The position numbers and the translations under genes are program-made. Below, one piece after another: positions 2,864 through 56,687 of a stretch of 64,000 bases of DNA. Position 1 is the first letter of the stretch. Each line of letters begins with the position of its first letter. Below the pieces are notes generated by a model, which did not search any database, was not told the DNA's origin, and worked only from the letters and a program-made list of their open reading frames with translations. The DNA comes from Candidatus Omnitrophota bacterium (lineage in GTDB: Bacteria > Omnitrophota > Gorgyraeia > Gygaellales > Profunditerraquicolaceae), in NCBI GenBank assembly GCA_020058085.1, contig JAGVER010000007.1, positions 7,969-71,968 on the forward strand, in the 5' to 3' direction.

Positions 2864-2919
2864 AAAAGGCACCCAATTCTAAAGGGATGAATTGGTGCCC
2901 ATAACTATGGGAGAGACCG
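2864..2919 (+). promoter_or_regulatory. GGCACC leader motif, copy 1 (hairpin plus SD-containing tail)
   Basis: aaaaGGCACCCAATTC-taaagggat-GAATTGGTGCC-CATAACTATGGGAGAG, ending 4 nt before ATG 2920; the same architecture occurs at 55831 and 56543. Confidence 0.6.
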
Positions 2920-3786
2920 ATGATTGACCGAGAGATTCTTTTGGAGAAAATGAAGACTTCTCCTTATAAGCCGATGCAAGGTAAGATAATCGGCTCCGAG
3001 ATGCTTACGGACAAGGAGAAGATTTTTCGTATTGAACTCGAAGATAAAATAAATCTCGCTCATGAACCGGGGCAATTTGTGATGGTTTCTATCTTTGGTT
3101 TTGGAGAGGCGCCCATCTCTGTATGTTCTTCGCCGAGCGATAAAGGTTATTTTGAGATTACCGTGAGAAATGTCGGCGTGCTTACCGATAAACTGCATAA
3201 ATTGGATAAGGGAGATATAGTGGGAATCCGTGGACCATTTGGCAAGGGTTTTCCTGTTGATAATATGTTCGGATATGACATTATGATTGTCGCCGGTGGA
3301 TTAGGAATTGTGCCTTTGCGTTCTTTAATCCGCTATATTATGTTTCACCGTAATGACTTTGGAAATGTGCAGATGCTTTTAGGTTGTAAAACTCCGAGAG
3401 AACTTTTATTTGAAGTTGAGACAAAAGATTGGATGCGTAGGGCAGAGATAAAGTTTAACTGTACCGTAGACACGGGAGCGCCGGACTGGAAAGGAAACGT
3501 TGGCTTAATCACCACTTTAATTCCTAATGTTGATATTAACCCCATGCGTACTTACGTAGTGGTAGTTGGGCCTCCGATTATGTATAAATTTGTCATTGTA
3601 AAGCTTTTGGAGAAAAAGATACCTGATCATCAGATCATTGTTTCTTTGGAGCGTAGGATGAAATGCGGTTTGGGTAAGTGTGGCCATTGCCAGATCGAAG
3701 GCATGTATGTTTGTCAATCTGGTCCGGTTTTTAATTACGCGCAGTTAAAGAATTTTAAAGGAGAGTGTCATGAAAAAGCAATCTAA
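2920..3786 (+). CDS. Group 3b [NiFe]-hydrogenase gamma subunit (FAD/NAD(P)-binding, 2Fe-2S; AsrB/PyrK-like)
   Basis: RGPFGKGF, VAGGLGIVPLRS nucleotide-binding motifs; C-terminal CGLGKCGHCQ...C cluster. Confidence 0.85.
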   Translation: MIDREILLEKMKTSPYKPMQGKIIGSEMLTDKEKIFRIELEDKINLAHEPGQFVMVSIFGFGEAPISVCSSPSDKGYFEITVRNVGVLTDKLHKLDKGDIVGIRGPFGKGFPVDNMFGYDIMIVAGGLGIVPLRSLIRYIMFHRNDFGNVQMLLGCKTPRELLFEVETKDWMRRAEIKFNCTVDTGAPDWKGNVGLITTLIPNVDINPMRTYVVVVGPPIMYKFVIVKLLEKKIPDHQIIVSLERRMKCGLGKCGHCQIEGMYVCQSGPVFNYAQLKNFKGECHEKAI

Positions 3787-4534: not shown

Positions 4535-5864
4535 GATAGATTCTCAAAACGTAAAAGTAGATGTGCATTATCTGACTAGGGTAGAGGGTCATGGCAATAT
4601 TGTGGTTGACGTAAAAGAGGGCAAGTTAACTAAATGCGAGTTTCAGGTAATTGAGTCTCCGCGTTTCTTTGAGTCAATGCTGGTAGGTAGGTCTATCTGG
4701 GAAGCGCAGCATTTAACTAGCCGTATTTGCGGTATCTGCGCCTGTGGGCATACGCTGGCGAGTATCAGGGCAGCCGAGGATGCTTTAGGTGTAAAACCAT
4801 CAGATGAAGTGGTTATGCTTAGAAAACTTTTACTTAACACTGAAATGTTAGATAGTCATATCCTGCACATTTATATTCTGGTTGCCCCGGATTTATTGGG
4901 GGTAAAGAGTATTGTGCCTTTGATTAAGACGCATCGGCCGGTAATTGAGATGGCTTTGCGTATGAAGCGGATGAGTGACTATGGCGGAGAAGTGCTTGCG
5001 GGCAGGCATATTCATCCTATAAGTTATGTCATCGGCGGGCTTACTCAACTTCCTTCGCGTGAAGGCCTAGAGAAGTTATACAATTTAATGTTAGAATCGC
5101 GTAAAGATGGCGAGGAAACAGTAAAAATAATTAAGACATTGAAGTTTCCGGAGTTTGAGAGGCCGACACAATATATGTCGCTTACTTCTGACGATGAATA
5201 TGCTATCTATGATGGAGATTTAGTGGTCAACGGAATAAAGAGCAAGGTGCGCGATTACCGTAAACTTTTTATGGAATCAGTAGTGGATTATTCCCGGGCT
5301 AAGATATCCAAGATTAATGGAAAATCTTACGCTGTAGGTGCGCTGGCGCGTTTTAATAATAATTTTGACAAGTTACACAAAAAGGCAAAAGCAGTGGCAA
5401 AAGAATTAGGCTTAAAGGCGCCATGCCATAATCCTTACCTTAATACAGCAGCACAGCTGGTAGAATGGGTGCATTGCTTGGAAGATTCAATTACTATACT
5501 TGAGAAGATTTTAAAAGACGGCTTAAGCGAAGAGAAGGTAGTTGTATCCTCTTGGCCGAAGAGAAGTGAGATGGGTAAGATTAAGTATAAATCAAACACC
5601 GGTGTGGGTTGCGTTGAGGTTCCCCGGGGTTCTTTGTTCCATGAGTATACTATAGATGAGGCTGCCCACATTACTGCTGCTAACTGCGTGATTCCCACTA
5701 ACCAAAATATGGGCAACTTAGAGGATGATATGCGTAAGATTGTGCCGGAGCTATTAGGCAAAAAGAGCCAGGAGGAGATTACTCTTGACCTTGAGATGTT
5801 AGCCCGCGCATATGATCCATGCATATCCTGTGCTACCCATCTTCTGGATGTAAAGTTCGAATAA
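4515..5864 (+). CDS. Group 3b [NiFe]-hydrogenase large (alpha) subunit
   Basis: N-terminal RICGICACGH and C-terminal DPCISCATH Ni-Fe ligand motifs. Start moved to ATG 4515, which follows GGGGGAG (the ORF track starts at 4494). Confidence 0.92.
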   Translation: MTKSLNKIDSQNVKVDVHYLTRVEGHGNIVVDVKEGKLTKCEFQVIESPRFFESMLVGRSIWEAQHLTSRICGICACGHTLASIRAAEDALGVKPSDEVVMLRKLLLNTEMLDSHILHIYILVAPDLLGVKSIVPLIKTHRPVIEMALRMKRMSDYGGEVLAGRHIHPISYVIGGLTQLPSREGLEKLYNLMLESRKDGEETVKIIKTLKFPEFERPTQYMSLTSDDEYAIYDGDLVVNGIKSKVRDYRKLFMESVVDYSRAKISKINGKSYAVGALARFNNNFDKLHKKAKAVAKELGLKAPCHNPYLNTAAQLVEWVHCLEDSITILEKILKDGLSEEKVVVSSWPKRSEMGKIKYKSNTGVGCVEVPRGSLFHEYTIDEAAHITAANCVIPTNQNMGNLEDDMRKIVPELLGKKSQEEITLDLEMLARAYDPCISCATHLLDVKFE

Positions 5865-5915: not shown

Positions 5916-5935
5916 TCTTAAGGTTATAGCAGACT

Positions 5936-6412
5936 TTGTTATCCAATAAAATTGCTGTAATAGGCCTGGGTAATACTTTAAGGAGAGATGACGGAATCGG
6001 CATAATTATTCTGGAATCCCTCCTTAATCATTATAAGCATGAAGCTATAGATTATCTTAACTTCGGCATAGCTAGTTTTGATCTTATACATCGCTTGCAG
6101 AATTATAATGTAGCTTTGCTTATTGATGGTATAGCAGCAGGCCTGCCTGCAGGGGAATTAAGGATATTCGGTTTAGAAGAAGCTTTTTTTATCGAAAGAG
6201 ATGGCCAGGAGGTGATGGTTTCATCCCATGAGTTAAATCTCAAAGATATTTTCAGATTGACGCGTAACCTGGGGATAAAGACTAAGATTTATGTGGCAGG
6301 AATACAAATAGAGGACATTGGCTTTGGCGAATCCTTAAGCGATTTGCTTAAAGAAAAGCTGGCTGGGATCATAAGGCAGATTGATAAGTTTATACAGGAA
6401 AGGTTACTTTAG
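5936..6412 (+). CDS. Hydrogenase maturation endopeptidase (HycI/HoxW/FrhD family)
   Basis: TTG start; VIGLGNTLRRDDGIG signature; SSHE His region; immediately downstream of the large subunit. Confidence 0.85.
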   Translation: MLSNKIAVIGLGNTLRRDDGIGIIILESLLNHYKHEAIDYLNFGIASFDLIHRLQNYNVALLIDGIAAGLPAGELRIFGLEEAFFIERDGQEVMVSSHELNLKDIFRLTRNLGIKTKIYVAGIQIEDIGFGESLSDLLKEKLAGIIRQIDKFIQERLL

Positions 6413-6417
6413 ATAAA

Positions 6418-7719
6418 ATGTGTTATGCCATTCCGGGGAAAGTAGAAGGTATAGTAGGGAACACGGTAATCGTTGACTATTTTGGTGAGAAGCGTAGGGC
6501 GCTTAATGAGTTGACGCAGGTTAATGTCGGCGATTATATCTATGCGCAGGGAGGATTTGTAGTAAACAAAATCTCTAGCTCTGAAGCAGAAAGCATTCTT
6601 TCTCTATGGAAAGAAACATTTTTTCGGCTACAGGAGGTAGACTTAAAGCTTTCGCATTTGCAATTGAAAGATAAAGACGTAAACAAAGTTTTACTTGAGA
6701 TATTAGATAAGGCTAGCCAGTCGAATGAGCTTACGCGTCAAGAGCTCTTATATTTGCTAAGGTTAGAAGATAAGAGACAGCTCGATTTGCTTTTTAAAAC
6801 TGCGAATTTCTTACGTCAAAAATATCACAAGAATTCCTGCTGTGTGCATGGAATAATTGAGATATCTAACTACTGTATTCGGGGATGTCAGTATTGCGGG
6901 ATATCTCATTATAATAAAGAGTTACAACGTTATCGTATGACAAAGAATGAAATTCTAGAAAGTGCACAGGTAGCTGTCCAGGAATATGGTTTTAAATCCT
7001 TGGTTCTGCAAAGCGGTGAAGATCCGGGATATAGTATTGATGAGTTAGCGGATATAATTAAAGAGATAAAGGATAAATTTCCTACATTAATCTTTATCAG
7101 CTTCGGAGAGATCGGTATAGACGGTCTGGAAAAACTTTATTCTGCTGGTGCGCGAGGTTTGCTTATGCGTTTTGAGACCTCAAATCCTAAGCTCTACGAG
7201 GGTATCCATCCCGGCCAGACCTTAGAGAGCAGGTTAAAGCATATAAAGAAAGCTTATGAAATGGGGTATATGATTATAACCGGGGGTTTAATCGGTCTAC
7301 CCGGGCAAAGCAAAGAAGATATTTTGAATGATATACTCCTAGCTCAAGAATTGCATGCGGAGATGTTTAGTTTTGGTCCATTCATCCCGCACCCCTATAC
7401 GCCTCTCTCAGGATTAAATCCGGCTGATCAGAGAGAAGTGATTAAAGTTCTTGCTTTAGCTAGAATCATTGATAATGCCCACGCTAAGATTTTAGTTACT
7501 ACGGCCCTAGAGACTCTAAGTAGGGAAGCGGCAAAGAGCGGTATGCTTGCCGGAGCAAATTCGTTGATGCTTAATGCTACTCCTATAGCCTATCGGCCAC
7601 TATATTCTATCTATCCTAATCGTGCACATCAATCTGAAGATATTGTTTTTCAGATTGAATCTACAGTATCCTTGTTACGGTCTTTAGGTCGCGCCCCAAC
7701 TGACCTGGAATTAATCTAA
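6418..7719 (+). CDS. hydE: HypC-like domain fused to radical SAM [FeFe]-hydrogenase maturase HydE
   Basis: Residues 1-75 (MCYAIPGKVEGIVGNTVIVDYFG..GDYIYAQGGFVV) match the HypC/HupF pattern, including Cys2. The rest aligns with Thermotoga HydE: CIRGCQYCG, RYRMT, VLQSGEDP, GLPGQ, GPFIPHPYTPL. Confidence 0.8.
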   Translation: MCYAIPGKVEGIVGNTVIVDYFGEKRRALNELTQVNVGDYIYAQGGFVVNKISSSEAESILSLWKETFFRLQEVDLKLSHLQLKDKDVNKVLLEILDKASQSNELTRQELLYLLRLEDKRQLDLLFKTANFLRQKYHKNSCCVHGIIEISNYCIRGCQYCGISHYNKELQRYRMTKNEILESAQVAVQEYGFKSLVLQSGEDPGYSIDELADIIKEIKDKFPTLIFISFGEIGIDGLEKLYSAGARGLLMRFETSNPKLYEGIHPGQTLESRLKHIKKAYEMGYMIITGGLIGLPGQSKEDILNDILLAQELHAEMFSFGPFIPHPYTPLSGLNPADQREVIKVLALARIIDNAHAKILVTTALETLSREAAKSGMLAGANSLMLNATPIAYRPLYSIYPNRAHQSEDIVFQIESTVSLLRSLGRAPTDLELI

Positions 7720-7772: not shown

Positions 7773-9161
7773 ATGAAGTATATTAATGAAGAAAGAATCA
7801 ATAATTTGTTGGTTGATGCGACTAAATTTGATAGCCGCAAGATAGATGCTATTCTTAATAAGGCTAAATTGCTTAAACGGCTTACCTTAGAAGAGTCTGC
7901 CAGTTTGCTTGCTGTAGATGATTTGGTATATATGCAGAAGATATTTTCCGCGGCAAGTTTTGTTAAAGATAAGATTTACGGAAGGAGAGTAGTGCTTTTT
8001 GCTCCGCTCTATATAAGTAATCTTTGTGCAAATAACTGTCTTTATTGTGCGTTTAAGGCGGATAACTCATTAATTAAGCGTAGAGCCTTAAACCCTCTTG
8101 AAATTATTGACCAGACAGAATGGTTGTTGGGGCATGGCCATAAGAGAATACTCATGGTTTGTGGAGAAGATGCTCCGGGCGGAAAGGCTAATGTAGATTA
8201 CTATGTTGAAGCAGTTCGGGCTATCTATGCTGCAGAGGTTGGCAAGAATAAGATAAAAAGAGTTAATGTTAATTGCGCGCCGTTAAACATTGATGAATTT
8301 AAGAAGCTGAAGGCATCTGGTATAGGGACCTATCAGCTTTTTCAGGAAACATATAATCATGAGACTTATCTGCGTATGCATCCAAAAGGCCCTAAGAGTG
8401 ATCCTGATAATAGAATTGATGCGATTGACCGCGCATTTACCGCGGGAATAGATGATATAGGAATCGGAGCGCTTTACGGTTTATATGATTACAGGTTTGA
8501 AACTCTGGGCTTACTTTCTCATGTTGAGCATATGGAGAAGAAATTTAAGGTTGGGCCGCATACTATTTCTGTGCCGCGCATTGAGCCGGCTGATGGTGCA
8601 GAACTGTCTTTTAATCCGCCGTATAAGATTACGGATGAAGAGTTTAAAAAAGTGGTCGCGGTATTAAGGCTCTCTGTACCTTATACCGGGATAATTATCT
8701 CTACGCGTGAGAATCCGGAGATGCGCGATTCACTTTTAAGCCTTGGCGTTTCGCAGGTTAGCGCGGCATCACGAACCTCACCCGGAGGATATTCTGATTT
8801 TGATAAAGAAGATACCGGAGGGCAATTCTCTCTGAACGATTATCGTAGCCTAGATGAGGTAATTGCAACTTTGGTTAAGCATGACTATATCCCTAGTTTT
8901 TGCGCTGCCTGCTACCGTATGGAAAGAACCGGAGAAGTTTTTATGGATATGGCTAAACCCGGGACGATTAAAGGTAAGTGTAGCATTAATGCGCTGGTAA
9001 CGTTCAAAGAGTATCTGGATGATTTTGCATCTGAACCGGTTAGGAAATCCGGTTATAAGATGATTGAGCGTTATTTTAAGCAGTTGGATCATCTTGAACA
9101 GGAAAAGTTAAAGGTTCTTTTTGCACATGTTGACTCCGGGGTAAGGGATGAATATGTTTAA
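7773..9161 (+). CDS. hydG: Radical SAM [FeFe]-hydrogenase maturase HydG (tyrosine lyase type)
   Basis: CANNCLYCAF (CX3CX2C) and C-terminal CAAC-22 residues-C (CX2CX22C), the HydG auxiliary-cluster motif; AGGAG RBS. Confidence 0.85.
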   Translation: MKYINEERINNLLVDATKFDSRKIDAILNKAKLLKRLTLEESASLLAVDDLVYMQKIFSAASFVKDKIYGRRVVLFAPLYISNLCANNCLYCAFKADNSLIKRRALNPLEIIDQTEWLLGHGHKRILMVCGEDAPGGKANVDYYVEAVRAIYAAEVGKNKIKRVNVNCAPLNIDEFKKLKASGIGTYQLFQETYNHETYLRMHPKGPKSDPDNRIDAIDRAFTAGIDDIGIGALYGLYDYRFETLGLLSHVEHMEKKFKVGPHTISVPRIEPADGAELSFNPPYKITDEEFKKVVAVLRLSVPYTGIIISTRENPEMRDSLLSLGVSQVSAASRTSPGGYSDFDKEDTGGQFSLNDYRSLDEVIATLVKHDYIPSFCAACYRMERTGEVFMDMAKPGTIKGKCSINALVTFKEYLDDFASEPVRKSGYKMIERYFKQLDHLEQEKLKVLFAHVDSGVRDEYV

Positions 9162-35729: not shown

Positions 35730-37832
35730 ATGGGTGGTTTTGATTTGTTATTATTAGCACCGGTAGGTTCAATTTTAGCTTTAGGTTTTGCTTTTTATCT
35801 GGCCCTAAGCATACTTAGGATGGACGAAGGCACAGATAAGATGAAGGAAATTGCTCAGGCAGTTCGTGTAGGCGCTCAGGCATATTTAAAAAGGCAATAC
35901 TTAGGTGTTTCCATATTTTTCGTGGTTGTATTTCTTATTCTTCTGGCTATGGCCTTGAAGAATTACTTAGTAATTTTTGTTCCATTTGCTTTTTTAACCG
36001 GAGGTCTCTTCTCAGGTTTGTCCGGTTTTATTGGAATGAATATTGCCACCCAATCTTCTAACCGTACTGCTCAGGCTGCTTCTAAGAGTTTGAATTTAGG
36101 TTTACGTGTTGCCTTTTCGAGCGGTGCAGTAATGGGCTTAACAGTCGTAGGGTTAGGCCTCTTAGATTTAAGTGTCTGGTACTATTTTCTAAACTGGTAT
36201 TATTCTTGCCATCCGATTCCTCTTGGAACGGATAAGATTGCTGCGATTACCTCTACTATGCTTTGTTTTGGTATGGGCGCTAGCTCAATGGCGTTGTTTG
36301 CCAGGGTAGGTGGTGGCATCTTTACTAAGGCTGCGGATGTGGGAGCGGATTTAGTCGGAAAAGTAGAAGCAGGTATTCCTGAAGATGATCCACGTAATCC
36401 GGCAGTCATCGCTGATAATGTGGGTGATAATGTCGGCGATGTTGCGGGTATGGGTGCCGATCTATATGAATCATATGTTGGTTCAATTGTAGCTACTTCT
36501 GCTTTGGGTGTTGCTGCTGGATTAGGTGTAGCCGGTGTAACTGTGCCAATGGTTATGGCAGCTGTGGGTGTTGTCGCCTCAATCATTGGAACTTTTTTTG
36601 TAAAAAGTGGCGAGCAGGCCAGCCAAAAAATATTGCTTGCAGCTTTAAGAAAAGGTGTATTTACCAGTTCGTTACTAGTTGCGGTAATTTCATATTTTCT
36701 AGTTAAAGTAACTTTAGGAGTTGAACATCTAGGGGTTTACTGGTCAGTTCTAGCAGGTTTAATCGCTGGTGTATTGATTGGTTTATGTACAGAGTATTAT
36801 ACTTCCAGTGGATTTAAACCGACTCGTTCCATTGCTGATGCTTCTTTAACCGGCCCAGCAACTGTAATCATCGGAGGTATCGCGGTAGGTATGATGTCTA
36901 CTGCAATACCGGTAATTATTGTATGTGTTGCTATTTTGGTAAGTTTCTACTTATCTGGTGGGGGAGCAAACTTTAATGCCGGACTTTATGGTATTGCAAT
37001 TTCTGCGGTAGGTATGCTTTCCACTTTAGGTATAACTTTAGCTACTGATGCCTATGGCCCGGTTGCGGATAATGCCGGAGGAAATGCGGAGATGGCTAAA
37101 CTACCTCCAGAAGTAAGGAAGAGAACTGACGCATTGGATTCTTTGGGTAATACTACCGCGGCAACCGGTAAAGGTTTTGCTATTGGTTCAGCAGCATTAA
37201 CAGCATTAGCCTTGATCGCTGCTTATAAAGATCAAGTTATGCTCTTTGGGAAAGATATTAATGCGAGCATGATGAACCCCACGGTATTAGTAGGTTTATT
37301 TCTAGGTGGGATGTTGCCATTCTTATTCTGTTCCATGACTATGCGTGCAGTGGGTAGGGCAGCAGGTAAAATTGTTGTTGAAGTGCGCAGGCAGTTTAAG
37401 GAAATAGTCGGTATTATGGAAGGGAAAGCCAAACCGGATTATGCGCGTTGTGTAACTATTGCAACCGCGGCAGCGCAGAAAGAGATGATTGCCCCGTCAC
37501 TTTTGGCTATCGTTGCTCCTATAGGCGTAGGGTTGTTAATAGGTATTGATGCAGTTGCCGGTCTTCTCATGGGCGCAACCGTTACTGGGTTTGTTTTGGC
37601 GGTTATGATGGCTAATTCCGGCGGTGCTTGGGATAATGCCAAGAAATTTGTTGAAGAGGGGCATCATGGAGGTAAAGGGTCAGCTGCACATAAAGCTACG
37701 GTAGTTGGTGATACTGTAGGTGATCCGTTTAAGGATACTTCCGGGCCGAGCTTAAATATTTTGATTAAGCTTATGTCCATGGTTTCTATTGTATTTGCTT
37801 CGTTCATTATTAAAAATACGTTAATCAAGTAA
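35730..37832 (+). CDS. hppA: Membrane-bound proton/sodium-translocating pyrophosphatase
   Basis: [52 protein letters not shown] motifs; 700 aa polytopic. Confidence 0.93.
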
Positions 37833-37844
37833 TTTTACTGTGCA

Positions 37845-37873
37845 ACACCCGACCCTATCTGAAGGGTCGGTGT
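37845..37873 (+). terminator. Hairpin downstream of hppA (terminator candidate)
   Basis: acacccgaccct-atctga-agggtcggtgt; the T-run comes only about 27 nt later. Confidence 0.35.
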
Positions 37874-37908
37874 ACGCTTCTGCGTAAAAATGGTGTCCCT
37901 TTTTTTGT

Positions 37909-38570: not shown

Positions 38571-39272
38571 ATGCCTAAAGATCTAGAGGGGTTAATTCTG
38601 CTGGTCTATAGAAGATGGAAGGAGCGTCATTTAAAAATGGAGGAAGATCATCCAGATGAAGAAGCTCTCATTTCTTTTCTGGAAGGTAAATTGCCTTTGG
38701 AAGAAGCTGAGGCGTTTAAGGTGCATTTGACCCGTTGTGAAGACTGCGCTGAAGTTGTAGGTTTAAGTCTGACCTCCTCTAATACTCCGGATAACGAACT
38801 TCCCGTTAGGCTGGTTAATCTCGCTAGGGAAAAGTTCGGGGTAAAGGATGCTCCGGCGTTAGAGATTATTTTAAAGCTTAAGGAGAAGATGCTCGAGGTT
38901 TTAAGCGCCAGCGGTGAAATACTCTTAGGCCAGGAGATGCTTCCTGCTGCAGTATTGCGCAGTAGGAATATCAATGAATTCAAAGACGAGGTTGTCATAT
39001 TAAAGGATTTTAAGGATATTAGAGTCCAGATAAAAATAGAGAATAAATCCGGTAAATATTTTAATCTTAATATACAGGCGAAGAGTAAACAGGGTAAAGA
39101 GGTGATCAAAGATTTAAGGGTTACTTTATTTAAAGAAGATATAGAGCTGGAGTCTTATTTGAATGATTCAGGGGTAGTTATCTTTGAGCATGTGCTTTTA
39201 GGCAAGTATAAGGTTGAGCTGGCGGATTTAGAAAGAAATCTCGCTTCAGTGCTTTTAGATGTGAGGGTTTAG
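38571..39272 (+). CDS. Zinc-finger (HxxxCxxC) anti-sigma factor candidate, no TM segment
   Basis: HLTRCEDCAE motif about 50 aa from the N-terminus; directly follows the ECF sigma gene; beta-rich C-terminal domain. Confidence 0.6.
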   Translation: MPKDLEGLILLVYRRWKERHLKMEEDHPDEEALISFLEGKLPLEEAEAFKVHLTRCEDCAEVVGLSLTSSNTPDNELPVRLVNLAREKFGVKDAPALEIILKLKEKMLEVLSASGEILLGQEMLPAAVLRSRNINEFKDEVVILKDFKDIRVQIKIENKSGKYFNLNIQAKSKQGKEVIKDLRVTLFKEDIELESYLNDSGVVIFEHVLLGKYKVELADLERNLASVLLDVRV

Positions 39273-39280
39273 AAAGCAAA

Positions 39281-41461
39281 ATGCCGCAAGAGAGCGCAAT
39301 AACTTTAGAGATAATTCGCGAAGGCGATATTCTTAAGATGAGTGTCTCTGAACATAGAGAGCTTTCCGCTACATTGAGGCATTACAGCCAGCATAAGGTC
39401 GATTTCTCGGAAGTCGATAAGCTCTGCCACGAAGTTACCTTGCTTTTGAATAAGCCTGACCTTAGCGACCCATCGCTTTCGAAAAGCCTAGAAAAAACAG
39501 CCCATGCACTCTGGGATCATTTACTTACGCGTTCGGTCAAAGAAAAGCTTCGCCAGAGTTTAAATTATAACTTACTTCTTGAGATTGATGAAGAGTTGAT
39601 TTTTATCCCTTGGGAGCTTCTCTACGATGGTGATAATTTCTTATCTCTTAGTTTTAACCTCGGGCGGTTAGTGAGGACCCAATCTAAAGCTCCGTCTCTC
39701 GATTACCGCAGTTTAAGCCACGTATTTAAGATGCTCGTCTTGGCTAATCCTACCAATGACTTAAAGGCTTCGTATTTTGAAGGATTAAATATCAGAAATC
39801 AGTTCGACCGCAAACATCGCAATATCCGCATTGATTTTAAATCTACCAATATTGATAAGCTATATGTAAAGAAAAATATCTGTGACTATGATATTGTGCA
39901 TTTTGCCGGACACTGCGAGTATGGCTATCATAATACTAAGGAGAGCGGATGGGTATTAAGTGATGGAAATTTTAGTGTTCAGGATATTCTCAGGCTCGGA
40001 TCAGGGTCATCACTTCCAACATTAATATTTAGCAATGCCTGTCATTCCGCACCTTTATCAAAAGAGGGTTTAATCGATAGGGATTACCAGAGGAAAAATT
40101 ATTCTCTTGCCGGCGCGTTCTTATTCTCCGGAGTGCGCCATTATATCGGGTCGATAAGGAAGATCGAGGATACAGCGAGCTTGGCTTTTGCAAAAGAATT
40201 TTACCATAATTTAACGCTAGGTAAATCTTTGGGCGCTAGTCTGCGTTTAGCTAGGCTTAGATTAGTTAAGGATTATGGCATTTCTTCGATGCATTGGGCA
40301 AATTATCTGCTTTATGGCGATCCCGGTTTTATTCTTTTTAAACCAAAGCCGAATACTAAGTCTAAGAAAAAAATAGTTTTACCTAAAAAATGGCTCATTC
40401 GATCACTCTTAATATCGCTATTGACGATTGCATTAATATCTCTGTATTTTTTGCTCCCGACTATCAATCCAAGTGCCTATATTCTATTTTTAAAGTCAAA
40501 GGCGCTTTTTGCTAAAGGGGCTAACCAAGAGGTTATAACTATAGGTAAAAACATTATTGCCAAGGATAAGAATTTCTTGGATATTTATCCTATACTTGCA
40601 GATACTTATCATAAGCTAGGGGATAGGGATAATGCAATCAAATATTATTTTGATTATGTGCTTGTTGCCCAGAAGATGAACGATAGCAAGCATCTCGCAG
40701 CTGCCTATATATCTATTGGTTGGTTTTATCATTTGGACGGGGAATATAGAAAAGCCAAGGAATTTTATGATAAAGCGCTTAATTTGAGCAGAAAGCTCAA
40801 AGATAAGTTAAATGAGGCAGTGGCACTTAGGAAACTGGCAGTCTGGAATATCGATAATAACAATAATGATTTAGCATTGGAGTTGCTTATTAAGAGTTCC
40901 GAGATCAATCGCCAGAGGCAGCATCTTAACGCGTATCGTTATAATCTTGCTTGTGATTATTTTGATATAGGTTTGGTTTTTAGCAATAAGAACGATTTTG
41001 CTGCTGCTGAAGAGTTTTATCGTAAAAGCCGTAAGCTTTTTGAGAAGGTTAACCTTAAAAACGAGCTAAGTGATTATTATTTCAATTTAGGTGAACTTTA
41101 CTCTTTTGAGAAGCAATATGAAAAAGCGCTGGTTTCTTATCTTACTGGCCTAAAAATAGACCGGGATCAGGGAAATAAAAGGAGCCTAGCTTCAGATTAT
41201 AATATGATCGGAGAGCTCTACCTGGAGATGGATAGATTTATTGAGGCTGAATCCAATTTTAACCAGGCGTTAACTATCTCTGAGGAGATCGGATCTCGCC
41301 CAGGTATAGCCGGGACTTATTATAATCTAGGCATTTTGTATAAAAAACTAGGGAGAAAGAATAGGTCTAAGGAAAATCTACGTAAGGCGCAGGAGATTTA
41401 CGGGGTTATTGATCCCTCAGCTTATGAAGAGACAAAAAAAGAGATATTAAGCTTAGATTAA
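39281..41461 (+). CDS. CHAT (caspase-like) protease domain - TM helix - TPR repeat protein
   Basis: VHFAGHCEY (His) and LIFSNACHSA (Cys) dyad; basic stretch plus TM helix WLIRSLLISLLTIALISLYFLL; about 8 TPR-like repeats at the C-terminus. Confidence 0.75.
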   Translation: MPQESAITLEIIREGDILKMSVSEHRELSATLRHYSQHKVDFSEVDKLCHEVTLLLNKPDLSDPSLSKSLEKTAHALWDHLLTRSVKEKLRQSLNYNLLLEIDEELIFIPWELLYDGDNFLSLSFNLGRLVRTQSKAPSLDYRSLSHVFKMLVLANPTNDLKASYFEGLNIRNQFDRKHRNIRIDFKSTNIDKLYVKKNICDYDIVHFAGHCEYGYHNTKESGWVLSDGNFSVQDILRLGSGSSLPTLIFSNACHSAPLSKEGLIDRDYQRKNYSLAGAFLFSGVRHYIGSIRKIEDTASLAFAKEFYHNLTLGKSLGASLRLARLRLVKDYGISSMHWANYLLYGDPGFILFKPKPNTKSKKKIVLPKKWLIRSLLISLLTIALISLYFLLPTINPSAYILFLKSKALFAKGANQEVITIGKNIIAKDKNFLDIYPILADTYHKLGDRDNAIKYYFDYVLVAQKMNDSKHLAAAYISIGWFYHLDGEYRKAKEFYDKALNLSRKLKDKLNEAVALRKLAVWNIDNNNNDLALELLIKSSEINRQRQHLNAYRYNLACDYFDIGLVFSNKNDFAAAEEFYRKSRKLFEKVNLKNELSDYYFNLGELYSFEKQYEKALVSYLTGLKIDRDQGNKRSLASDYNMIGELYLEMDRFIEAESNFNQALTISEEIGSRPGIAGTYYNLGILYKKLGRKNRSKENLRKAQEIYGVIDPSAYEETKKEILSLD

Positions 41462-41559: not shown

Positions 41560-41644
41560 AAGTGTAAATTGACATTTTGACAATTTGGTATTTTGACCTA
41601 TGGCTTTGGCTTTTGGAGCCAAACCATGGTCAACTGACCTACTG

Positions 41645-41735
41645 AAAAGGCAAACTAGCAGTAATGCTGGGGCGCAAAACTTCCGGCCCTGCACTAATTT
41701 TTGAGATTAGCGCAGGGCAGCGGAGTTGCCAAAAG
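41645..41735 (+). promoter_or_regulatory. Candidate c-di-GMP-I (GEMM-I) riboswitch aptamer
   Basis: AGGCAAAC, then hairpin CUAGCA-GUAA-UGCUGG (GNRA loop), GGCGCAAAAC, a long P3 hairpin (CUUCCGGCCCUGCACUAAU...AUUAGCGCAGGGCAGCGGAG), and GUUGCC. Parallels the remembered Vc2 aptamer: GGGCAAAC..GAAA..GACGCAAAGC..P3..GUUACC. Confidence 0.6.
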
Positions 41736-41987: not shown

Positions 41988-42242
41988 ATGGCAAAAGTCG
42001 AGCGGCAGATTATGGCACACAGGGTTATAACTATGTTAGGCCGTGAGGAGATAGATTTTTTAGATAAGTTAGGGAAAGATGCTCTTTTTTCAACCGGGCA
42101 CAAGCTTTCTTATAATGAAATACTCCGCGGTTTAATTGATTTTGCCATGGAGGCGGGTATTTCAGGTGATAATATAGATTCGCCTAGGACTTTGAAGCTT
42201 AAATTGAAGGAGCAGGCGAGCCGAATTGAGGGTCACAATTAA
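41988..42242 (+). CDS. Hypothetical small protein (possible ribbon-helix-helix fold)
   Basis: 84 aa, AAGGGGGG RBS; a beta-strand then helices pattern at the N-terminus; no motif recognised. Confidence 0.45.
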   Translation: MAKVERQIMAHRVITMLGREEIDFLDKLGKDALFSTGHKLSYNEILRGLIDFAMEAGISGDNIDSPRTLKLKLKEQASRIEGHN

Positions 42243-42257: not shown

Positions 42258-42689
42258 ATGAAGAAAAACACCATATTTATTTTGATTTTAGTCTCCATTA
42301 TCTCGCTGCTCTTTAATACTAATGTTAAGGCAGATTATGAAGGGGATGAGTATATTGATTTTGGCGAAATTAAGAGGTTACCGGTTGTGAATCTAGATAA
42401 GGTTCCTTATGGGCAAAAAGCAATTAACAAGCTTGATAGGGGAGTAATTAATGCCGCGACATTCTGGCTGGAGGTCCCTGCTGAAGTTGCCAAGGTATCT
42501 AATGAACAGGATCCACTTATGGGCGTTTCAGTTGGGGTTGTTCATGGTTTAGTTGCTAGTGTTTTTCGCGCCGGTTCAGCGGTTTTCGACACAGTTACTT
42601 TCTTTGCTCCGCCTTACGATAAACCGGTAGTTAAACCTGAATACGCTCTTAATCGTGCTGATAGGGAGATAAAAGAGCTTTTCTGGTAG
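42258..42689 (+). CDS. Secreted protein resembling the exosortase-system-associated TIGR04073 family
   Basis: Signal peptide; KLDRGVINAATFWLEVPAEV matches the remembered KLxRGxxNxxxGWxExP signature. Confidence 0.55.
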   Translation: MKKNTIFILILVSIISLLFNTNVKADYEGDEYIDFGEIKRLPVVNLDKVPYGQKAINKLDRGVINAATFWLEVPAEVAKVSNEQDPLMGVSVGVVHGLVASVFRAGSAVFDTVTFFAPPYDKPVVKPEYALNRADREIKELFW

Positions 42690-55785: not shown

Positions 55786-55828
55786 CCCCGCACTTTCTAA
55801 ACAAAAAAATAGAGGGTGCGGGGTTTTT
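55786..55828 (+). terminator. Rho-independent terminator
   Basis: ccccgcactttct...agagggtgcgggg stem (two G-U pairs) followed by ttttt. Confidence 0.7.
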
Positions 55829-55830
55829 AA

Positions 55831-55886
55831 AAAGGCACCCAAATATATTTGAGTATTTGGTGCCCATAAGTATGGGAGATTTATTC
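55831..55886 (+). promoter_or_regulatory. GGCACC leader motif, copy 2
   Basis: aaaGGCACCCAAATA-tatttgag-TATTTGGTGCC-CATAAGTATGGGAGAT, ending 6 nt before ATG 55887; distal stem pairs differ from copy 1 in a compensatory way. Confidence 0.6.
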
Positions 55887-56509: not shown

Positions 56510-56543
56510 AATACGCCCAAGATTACTCTTGGGCGTATTTATT
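56510..56543 (+). terminator. Rho-independent terminator
   Basis: aatacgcccaaga-ttac-tcttgggcgtatt, 13-bp perfect stem, then tatt. Confidence 0.65.
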
Positions 56544-56687
56544 AAAAGGCACCAAAATATATTGTAGTGGCACCCAATTTTAATGGCACCTTGCCCTAAA
56601 GGATGGGCAAGTGTCCCGCCTTCTGCGGGAATGAATTGGTGCCCTATCCGTATGGGGTTTGGTGCCTATAACTATAGGAGTTAAAAG
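56543..56687 (+). promoter_or_regulatory. Expanded, nested GGCACC leader structure upstream of feoAB (candidate riboswitch or regulatory RNA)
   Basis: Outer stem GGCACCAAA (56547-56555) / TTTGGTGCC (56657-56665); inner stem GGCACCCAATT (56568-56578) / AATTGGTGCC (56633-56642); internal hairpins cttgccc-taaaggat-gggcaag and tcccgc-cttct-gcggga. Both 3' arms are followed by yATAnnnTATrGGrG tails, the last holding the SD. Confidence 0.6.

Follow-up and report, generated by a model that had tools for sequence, protein, structure and literature searches.

The subject of this analysis is a 64,000-nucleotide stretch of a Candidatus Omnitrophota genome (contig JAGVER010000007.1, positions 7,969 to 71,968; hereafter the window) and, within it, a hairpin element of about 41 nt that lies directly on the ribosome-binding sites (RBS) of three genes. 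The element is probably a mobile, non-autonomous DNA repeat. We consider it likely that it is a miniature insertional hairpin repeat, comparable to repetitive extragenic palindromic (REP) sequences, MITEs (miniature inverted-repeat transposable elements) and Rickettsia palindromic elements (RPEs), with a preference for AAGG sites resembling the Shine-Dalgarno (SD) sequence, and that it is no riboswitch. The initial annotation of this DNA, which had described a recurring structure coupled to start codons and had suggested a translational, possibly metal-sensing switch, is thus partly supported: the element is real, structured and SD-coupled, but it is not a switch.

The genes concerned encode the gamma subunit of a hydrogenase (start codon at 2920), a zinc-ribbon membrane protein (55887) and FeoA (56688). 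That the same hairpin and tail precede all three start codons had been read from the sequence, and this was confirmed almost base for base. From 5' to 3', each RBS site presents AAAAGG, CACC, a bulged C, a variable stem of 5 bp, a loop of 8-9 nt, the return stem and GGTG, followed by CC(C/T)ATAA(C/G)TAT(G/A)GG and AG, with 4-8 nt between the GGAG core and the start codon. The first copy (w1) reads AAAAGG CACCCAATTC TAAAGGGAT GAATTGGTG CCCATAACTATGGG AGAGACCG ATG and the second (w2) AAAAAGG CACCCAAATA TATTTGAG TATTTGGTG CCCATAAGTATGGG AGATTTATTC ATG, while the third (w3) is composed of the outer parts GGCACCAAA...TTTGGTGCC followed by TATAACTATAGGAG and ATG, with two more copies nested within. 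The bulged C, the compensatory changes in the distal stems and the CCCAU/AUGGG pairing of the tail are all present. Pfam profiles bore out the gene identities, namely a group-3b-type NiFe hydrogenase operon (beta, gamma, delta, alpha), the zinc-ribbon membrane protein and FeoA/FeoB, and w1 lies inside the hydrogenase operon as described, between the beta and gamma genes. The recurrence was compared with shuffled sequence: the window contains two matches to GGCACC-N(5-35)-GGTGCC where 0.03 would be expected (0 of 100 shuffles), and three to the tail pattern where 0.48 would be expected, a count reached in 1 of 100 shuffles. The first hairpin (P1) forms in the predicted RNA folds of w1, w2 and w3 (-17.3, -15.2 and -58.2 kcal/mol; z = -2.4, -1.9 and -4.8, respectively).

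The element is polymorphic for presence or absence at orthologous sites, with precise boundaries, as seen at the three window sites, at a gene encoding a CxxC-x17-CxxC protein (PF23477) and for an in-frame copy (L018 versus L045; L numbers denote collected loci). In orthologous hydrogenase operons (among L085-L090) with gamma subunits 91, 85, 81 and 79% identical, the beta-gamma spacers measure 35, 59, 18 and 19 nt and are element-free. The empty site of L085 is TTTAAAGG^AGAGATCGATG, where ^ marks the insertion point, in a leader that reads TAG...GTTTAAAGG^AGAGATCG ATG with AAAGG^AGAGATCGATG at the junction; the filled site of the window is TTTAAAAGG[element]AGAGACCGATG, in the leader TAG...ATTTAAAAGG[CACCC...CTATGGG]AGAGACCG ATG. 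At the zinc-ribbon gene, L091 (89% identical protein) carries ...GGGGTTTTTTAAAAGG^AGATTCATTT ATG with the junction TTTTTTAAAAGG^AGATTCATTTATG, and L092 (81%) carries ...TTTTAAAAAGG^AGCGTAATTG ATG, both following the pattern AAAAGG^AGATTC...ATG, as opposed to AAAAAGG[CACCC...GTATGGG]AGATTTATTC ATG in the window. The spacer before feoA is 70 nt long in L092, where a plain TTAGGGATAA SD is found and the element is missing, and 207 nt long in the window. Homologues of the CxxC-x17-CxxC protein from other lineages (L095-L114) likewise have a plain AGGAG and leaders of the form ...AGGAGATA(C/A)ACATG. Covariance models of the element found zero copies in 141 kb and 62 kb of related loci.

Because the relatives carry a plain AAGGAG-type SD and lack the element, copies w1-w3 appear to be lineage-specific, each having been added exactly within an SD that was already there. 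The GG of the two basal pairs in GGCACC/GGUGCC belongs to the old SD; at w1, for instance, it pairs with the CC at 2898-2899 and lengthens P1 to GGCACC/GGTGCC. At the other end, the terminal GGG of the element and the old AG(A/G) together make up an SD rebuilt at the original spacing. Insertion inside the old SD combined with this rebuilding explains why the motif sits on ribosome-binding sites. On parsimony, the events were more likely insertions than precise losses, since w1 has four relatives with an empty site and w2 has two to four. Judging from the loci compared, the genes downstream of w1-w3 are kept by close relatives that do not have the element.

The unit of about 41 nt consists of two abutting hairpins, P1 and P2. 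P1 is made of CACC, the bulged C, five variable base pairs, an 8-nt loop UAnnGGAU, the return stem and GGUG; in pattern-independent copies the loop reads U-A-n-n-k-G-A-k, with the A invariant and the preceding G nearly so. P2 starts at the base right after P1 and has 5-6 bp of free sequence and a mostly pyrimidine loop of 4-5 nt. Its versions include CCCAU/AUGGG, CCUAU/AUAGG, CCCUU/AAGGG, CCCAC/GUGGG and CCCCGC/GCGGGG as well as UAAAC/GUUUA, UAAGC/GCUUA, UACGC/GCGUA and UUCGU/ACGAA. In a model-based alignment of about 80 Omnitrophota copies, standard pairs fill 98.9% of 1061 pair cells and both-sided changes occur in 12 of the 14 pairs (226 cells), a result reached by 0 of 500 shuffles, and slid controls were 16-51% paired. 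When P1 alone was aligned with MAFFT, the three pairs free of the search pattern were 100% paired in several pair types, and RNAalifold predicts P1 independently. G-U pairs account for only about 5 of the 1061 cells (<1%). In helices under selection as RNA, G-U usually makes up several percent of the pairs, and complementarity restricted to Watson-Crick pairs is what would be expected of a DNA palindrome.

The family was followed beyond the window by several scans. Species-representative genomes, scanned with the 3' half of the motif, gave 10 loci with three true copies, all in Candidatus Omnitrophota metagenome-assembled genomes (MAGs); in each of the three, a near-consensus TTGCA-N17-TATAAT promoter lies about 40 nt upstream of the copy, and the start of a 54-aa Gly-rich protein follows directly. 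Metagenomes, scanned with a pattern confined to the hairpin in which AAGG...CCC was fixed and the tail unconstrained, yielded 74 loci, about 50 of them true copies. Orthologues of proteins encoded in the window likewise carry Omnitrophota/Omnitrophica annotations, which places the window in that phylum. Covariance models, an approach already proposed in the initial annotation, were then built from the copies, R1 covering P1 only and R2 both P1 and P2, and they gave 87 (R1) and 86 (R2) matches in the collected DNA, divergent copies included. Among these is a fourth copy in the window, which begins 13 nt past the stop codon of an H+-pyrophosphatase gene (35730-37832). Among the collections searched, the element turned up only in Candidatus Omnitrophota contigs; a scan of viral contigs returned 76 pattern matches and no true copy, two of the matches being chance hairpins without the loop motif.

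Searches of Rfam agree with the earlier statement that no recognised riboswitch class is involved. At the gathering threshold the whole window returned only a c-di-GMP-I-GGC riboswitch (41640-41734) and nothing for the element, scans of the three sites at permissive E-values gave only sub-threshold chance matches, and at the gathering threshold group I introns and a tRNA were all that was recovered from six further loci with the element. Integron attC sites were also considered and rejected, as the core sites RYYYAAC...GTTRRRY are lacking and the copies are surrounded by a conserved hydrogenase operon and by housekeeping genes. A resemblance to T-loop or tRNA-like structures and to group II domain V was dismissed by eye, the defining motifs being absent.

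The copies outside the window occupy diverse positions. In the orthologous secreted proteins of L050 and L040, the element lies in frame at the same residue (about 83-103) in opposite orientations. A small Lys-rich open reading frame (ORF) contains an in-frame copy in L001, L016 and L045 and none in L018, the difference being 42 nt, and its 5' untranslated region (UTR) holds one, two, three or three-plus-nested copies depending on the contig. At one and the same intron position, L044 carries the element in sense, and L065 and L078 carry it in antisense. The group I introns in question (RF00028, 66-80 bits) lie on the minus strand of Omnitrophota contigs at L044 1706-1961, L065 1279-1538 and L078 823-1069; by eye we take their host gene to be tRNA-fMet(CAU), a split tRNA not called by ARAGORN. 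Further copies are located between the groEL stop codon and a terminator, i.e., in the 3' UTR (L061), and between a coding sequence (CDS) and a tRNA gene (L017). Tandem arrays were seen in L001, L047/L077, L064 and L083, and nested copies in the feoA leader of the window, L021, L045 and L064, the inner copies being inserted in the P1 loop between ..GG or ..UG and a following A, an AAGG^A-like site. In the feoA leader, which is a triple nest, the innermost unit E3 is inserted in the loop of unit E2 after ..AATGG, and it belongs to the same subfamily as the in-frame copies of the Lys-rich ORF in L001, L016 and L045.

The genes directly 3' of RBS-type copies encode GroEL, ribosomal protein S6, ACP, RbfA, ferredoxin, glycogen synthase, NifU-like, AccB-like, PstS and the CxxC-x17-CxxC protein, and RecA follows about 30 nt after copies with a GC-rich P2. 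These names are readings of N-terminal sequences, profile libraries having been checked for the window genes and PF23477; as read, the genes are unrelated housekeeping genes and form no regulon.

In the light of these copies, the metal-sensing switch finds little room. A translational riboswitch for Fe, Ni or Co, in which the CC would be contested by P1 and P2 and binding of the ligand would determine sequestration of the SD's first G residues, is in our view extremely improbable. It draws on the metal-related genes behind the three RBS copies (a NiFe hydrogenase subunit, feoA and a zinc-ribbon protein beside feoAB), on the two C residues that P1 and P2 share, and on the absence of a matching Rfam family. 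However, the association with metal genes dissolves outside the window, where no regulon emerges, and the same genes are element-free in close relatives with 79-91% identical proteins. The alternative CCCAU/AUGGG pairing, on which the idea of a switch was founded, does exist, but it is the element's own P2, which covaries even far from start codons and is kept where no SD or start codon follows. Moreover, conservation is confined to one hairpin loop and a bulge, with no multi-helix junction or conserved pocket, P1 (-15 to -17 kcal/mol) far outweighs the 5-bp P2, and tandem, nested, in-frame, antisense and other non-leader copies are atypical of riboswitches.

Under the insertional repeat interpretation, the element would land just 3' of (A)AGG, and since AAGG^AG(G) is the SD core, many surviving insertions would split an RBS. 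The 3' GGG of the element and the old downstream AG(G) would then recreate an SD at its original distance from the start codon, so that the gene stays translatable. The conserved GGCACC/GGUGCC would be a composite of the element's CACC/GGUG and the target GG paired to the element's CC, and pairing of the same CC with the terminal GG of the element would give the alternative pairing mentioned above. Mobility would be supplied in trans, our best guess being a single-strand HUH mechanism of the IS200/IS605 or RAYT type that recognises hairpins; this guess stems from the extrahelical base of the imperfect hairpins, from a 5' flank that is short and specific, from insertion possibly without duplication and from the strand bias. 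The AAGG^ flank is compatible with insertion of the IS200/IS605 type, within the limits set by the ambiguity of the G runs and the bias of the search pattern.

As regards the transcript, P1 takes the CC and leaves P2 with three weak pairs, and the SD should therefore remain exposed. Partition-function folding of filled and empty leaders gave a context-dependent SD accessibility with no consistent trend. In RNA, P1 is probably at most a neutral or mRNA-stabilising hairpin beside an exposed SD. REP hairpins can stabilise mRNA, as in the case of the malE-malF REP, and by analogy P1 may guard against exonucleases.

A function in the transcript could nevertheless go further. It may be proposed that some copies, whatever their origin, have been co-opted as a cis-acting module of expression in 5' UTRs and intercistronic sites of highly expressed genes, acting as an mRNA-stabilising barrier hairpin, as an insulator that frees the SD or as a site for a lineage-specific RNA-binding protein. 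Such a protein would read the loop UAnnGGAU, the bulged C and the CACC/GGUG helix, with a CsrA-like GGA reader and the small CxxC-x17-CxxC protein as candidates. We regard this proposal, which is compatible with a repeat, as rather unlikely. It is favoured by the strong orientation bias relative to flanking long ORFs (about 45 copies sense and about 6 antisense) and by the conserved, strand-specific loop and bulge, with their invariant A and nearly invariant preceding G. It is also favoured by the copy before the CxxC-x17-CxxC gene, which lies downstream of a consensus promoter and is kept with compensatory stem changes in more than 20 contigs, by the typical high-expression genes downstream (GroEL, S6, ACP, RbfA, RecA) and by the GGA present in many P1 loops with a second GGA in the SD. 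On the other hand, antisense, in-CDS and intron copies fit poorly with a function in mRNA leaders, close relatives express these genes although they lack the element there, and G-U pairs are nearly absent. The GGA is variable (UGA, GAA and AGA also occur), and no csrA gene was detected by tblastn in the 0.6 Mb scanned, which is a weak test; a CsrA site was consequently rejected as the main explanation. The sense bias is also expected on other grounds, because an SD-like target is enriched on the coding strand (in the intergenic DNA of the window AAGGAG occurs 7 times on the coding strand vs once on the other, and AAGG 35 vs 18 times) and because insertion could be tied to the replication strand, all genes called in the window (about 68) being on the + strand. 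Orientation is thus uninformative between a repeat and a module acting in RNA.

Several of our observations weigh against a simple insertional repeat and have to be set beside the evidence in its favour. The sense bias, the strand-specific loop and bulge, and the copy kept before the CxxC-x17-CxxC gene across many contigs are compatible with an RNA-level function. The G runs at the junctions allow two parses, either 41-42 nt without duplication or 39 nt with duplication of GG, and the direction of the events rests on parsimony. Flank statistics of the metagenome copies are biased by the fixed AAGG...CCC of the pattern, so that the target is informed by only about 24 pattern-independent copies, whose left-flank consensus is roughly W-A-R-G. 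The alignment behind the pair statistics (A4) was fitted to the model, and in another (A3) the loop of two seeds was shortened by one base by hand. Finally, a tblastn search for a Y1/HUH transposase with three approximate queries (IS608-TnpA-, IS200-TnpA- and YafM-like), covering about 0.8 Mb and no whole genome, returned only a spurious AroA match.

A false riboswitch candidate has been removed, and the case illustrates that a repeat, through its many copies, its excellent covariation and its fixed place at start codons, can mimic a cis-regulatory RNA family. Provided that the targeting is real, the element would be a natural case of insertion that is near-neutral by design, a source of fast 5'-UTR remodelling in Omnitrophota and potentially a portable hairpin module for use next to an RBS. 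For the annotation of Omnitrophota MAGs, copies within proteins (in frame), a tRNA intron and operon spacers can confuse both gene calling and RNA-motif discovery. A bolder conjecture, decidedly unlikely in our estimation, is that this is the smallest known bacterial mobile element (about 41 nt), homing to SD cores (AAGG^AG) in a guide-like manner via its own CC on the target GG and regenerating them, and that it was then co-opted as an RNA handle placing housekeeping genes under a lineage-specific RNA-binding factor via the loop UAnnGGAU and the bulged C. If true, a mobile 'plug-in' RBS module would define a post-transcriptional regulon in an uncultured phylum. Literature searches found no description of an Omnitrophota repeat or of an SD-targeting palindromic element, and we know of no dispersed repeat that is placed in, and restores, SD sequences.

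The coordinates of the window copies are given in Table 1.

Table 1. Copies of the element in the window, with their hairpins and flanking SD sequences.
Feature	Positions	Strand	Description
Copy w1	2870..2911	+	Between hydrogenase beta (1815-2849) and gamma (2920-3786) genes; R1 54.3 bits, R2 51 bits
w1 P1 core	2870-2897	+	CACC C AATTC / loop TAAAGGGAT / GAATT GGTG
w1 P2	2898-2911	+	CCCATAACTATGGG
AAGG at w1, left half of old SD (target)	2866..2869	+	From comparison with the empty site of L085
Rebuilt SD at w1	2909..2915	+	GGGAGAG; 3' GGG of the element plus old right half-site AGAG; 4 nt before ATG 2920
Copy w2	55836..55876	+	55.9 bits (R1), also found by R2
w2 P1 core	55836-55862	+	
w2 P2	55863-55876	+	CCCATAAGTATGGG
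w2 target AAGG	55832-55835	+	
Rebuilt SD at w2	55874-55879	+	GGGAGA; ATG 55887 (zinc-ribbon membrane protein)
w3, outer unit E1	56550..56678	+	CACC 56550-56553 ... GGTG 56661-56664; P2 56665-56678 (CCTATAACTATAGG)
w3 SD	56676-56680	+	AGGAG; feoA ATG 56688
Nested unit E2	56571..56656	+	Inside E1 loop region; CACCCAATT ... AATTGGTG + P2 CCCTATCCGTATGGG (56642-56656)
Innermost unit E3	56587..56629	+	CACC TTGCCC / TAAAGGAT / GGGCAA GTGT + P2 CCCGCCTTCTGCGGG (56615-56629)
Fourth, more divergent copy	37846..37886	+	Not on an RBS; R1 21.4 bits, R2 58.4 bits
Fourth copy P1	37846-37872	+	CACC C GACCC / TATCTGAA / GGGTC GGTG
Fourth copy P2	37873-37886	+	TACGC TTCT GCGTA

Intrinsic terminators had been noted directly before w2 and w3. 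Strong terminator-like hairpins with U tracts do lie at 55786-55829 and 56513-56543 of the window and end about 10-20 nt before the SDs of the zinc-ribbon gene and feoA; a matching terminator-to-SD layout was found in repeat-free relatives (L091, about 5155-5205; L092, about 5935-5980 and 6620-6650). The terminators leave no room for a promoter before these two genes, which suggests control by read-through or attenuation. No promoter-like site, either sigma-54 or sigma-70, was detected inside the element on the + strand of the copies, and with the same layout in relatives lacking the element, a promoter within it was rejected.

Some features neighbouring the copies are also worth recording. 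The repeats are densest at a conserved gene pair (L001 2400-3210 and its equivalents in L016, L018 and L045) in which the Lys-rich ORF (V/M-ARDNYSYKKYQKEL...) is followed by the 54-aa Gly-rich CxxC-x17-CxxC (PF23477) protein, whose gene has its own near-consensus promoter; 5' UTR arrays, an in-frame copy and an RBS copy occur together there. In repeat-free lineages (L095-L104, about 1465-1490) a perfect hairpin, GCACTGA-ca-TCAGTGC, is found a few bases upstream of the SD of the CxxC-x17-CxxC gene, and this different hairpin suggests that an SD-adjacent hairpin may be favoured in that leader. Several copies with a GC-rich P2, in-frame ones included (L015, about 3390-3500; L050, about 8540-8640; L040, about 2750-2850; L061, about 5320-5420), lie between the halves of another palindromic motif, CAGGGACTGTCCCC ... 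GGGG(A/G)CTGTCCCTG, which may be a further repeat family hosting the element.

Elsewhere in the window, the c-di-GMP-I-GGC aptamer (+ strand) belongs to RF03167 and scores 61.6 bits against a gathering score of 59. The small ORFs downstream of it (41988-42242 and 42258-42689) have no Pfam match, and directly upstream of the riboswitch region lies a gene for a CHAT-domain protease fused to TPR repeats (39281-41461), preceded by one for a zf-HC2 anti-sigma-like protein (38571-39272). Downstream of the hydrogenase, beside the HycI protease gene, an ORF at 6418-7719 encodes a HupF/HypC domain joined to a radical SAM domain, a fusion that is also kept in relatives L085-L087.

With respect to known systems, hairpins immediately 5' of or overlapping an SD are typical of SD-sequestering switches (riboswitch platforms, RNA thermometers) and of CsrA-type GGA sites, and the element shares with the latter a GGA in the loop and another in the SD. 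Unlike these systems, it has no aptamer and no coherent regulon, is present in some and absent from others of a set of close relatives, also has copies in antisense and away from start codons, and has a variable GGA. By comparative criteria it is neither a riboswitch nor a CsrA site.

The REP/BIME/REPIN sequences of Enterobacteria and Pseudomonas and their RAYT transposases offer a closer parallel (PMC3337134, PMC3733652, PMC8266576). They too are imperfect palindromes of 20-40 nt with a bulge, occur in high copy number, are co-transcribed with mRNAs, cluster and form nested insertions. Had a REP-type element without a link to start codons been recovered, it would have spoken against the initial annotation; a REP-type element is largely what was recovered, with the exception that its association with start codons is genuine, the insertion site being the explanation. 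That the element is a bona fide REP or REPIN mobilised by a RAYT (TnpA-REP) transposase is, however, very unlikely. The extrahelical base, the mostly intergenic location and the insertion beside a short specific motif, possibly without target duplication, would suit such a membership. Most REPs, however, carry a GTAG or CGTC tetranucleotide tag at one end (PMC3733652), and neither end of the Omnitrophota element does, its ends being CACC...GGUG and a second abutting hairpin. In addition, its copies lie in the SD 5' of genes and in frame within CDS rather than mainly after genes, inverted pairs (REPIN doublets) are lacking, and the search of roughly 0.8 Mb with approximate queries revealed no RAYT gene.

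RPEs (PMC10969869, PMC1779305) are, like the element, palindromic and tolerated in frame in protein genes and inside RNA genes, and neither has a known transposase; the in-frame copies in the L050/L040 secreted protein and the small Lys-rich ORF are read through in the manner of RPEs. RPEs differ in measuring about 100-150 bp and in being found in Rickettsia, and a preference for the SD or its rebuilding is not described for them. MITEs such as the Neisseria Correia/NEMIS sequences (PMC10969869) are likewise non-autonomous dispersed inverted repeats, and co-transcription with an effect on the expression of neighbouring genes is counted among the common features. MITEs span 50-500 bp and have terminal inverted repeats (TIRs) derived from insertion sequences and a defined target duplication (TA for Correia), whereas in the element of about 41 nt the 'TIR' corresponds to the arms of P1 with P2 outside them and the duplication is at most GG.

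Subterminal imperfect hairpins, insertion 3' of a short motif apparently without duplication and a strand-specific orientation are shared with IS200/IS605 and their gene-less derivatives, the PATEs (PMC6006769). Here the differences are the two dissimilar hairpins, a size several-fold below that of any described PATE and the failure to find a TnpA in the roughly 0.8 Mb scanned. Overall, the element is far smaller than the MITEs, RPEs and PATEs described (PMC10969869, PMC6006769). The repeat works like REP/BIME, RPE and MITE repeats, and we did not find a description of its placement in the SD together with SD regeneration.

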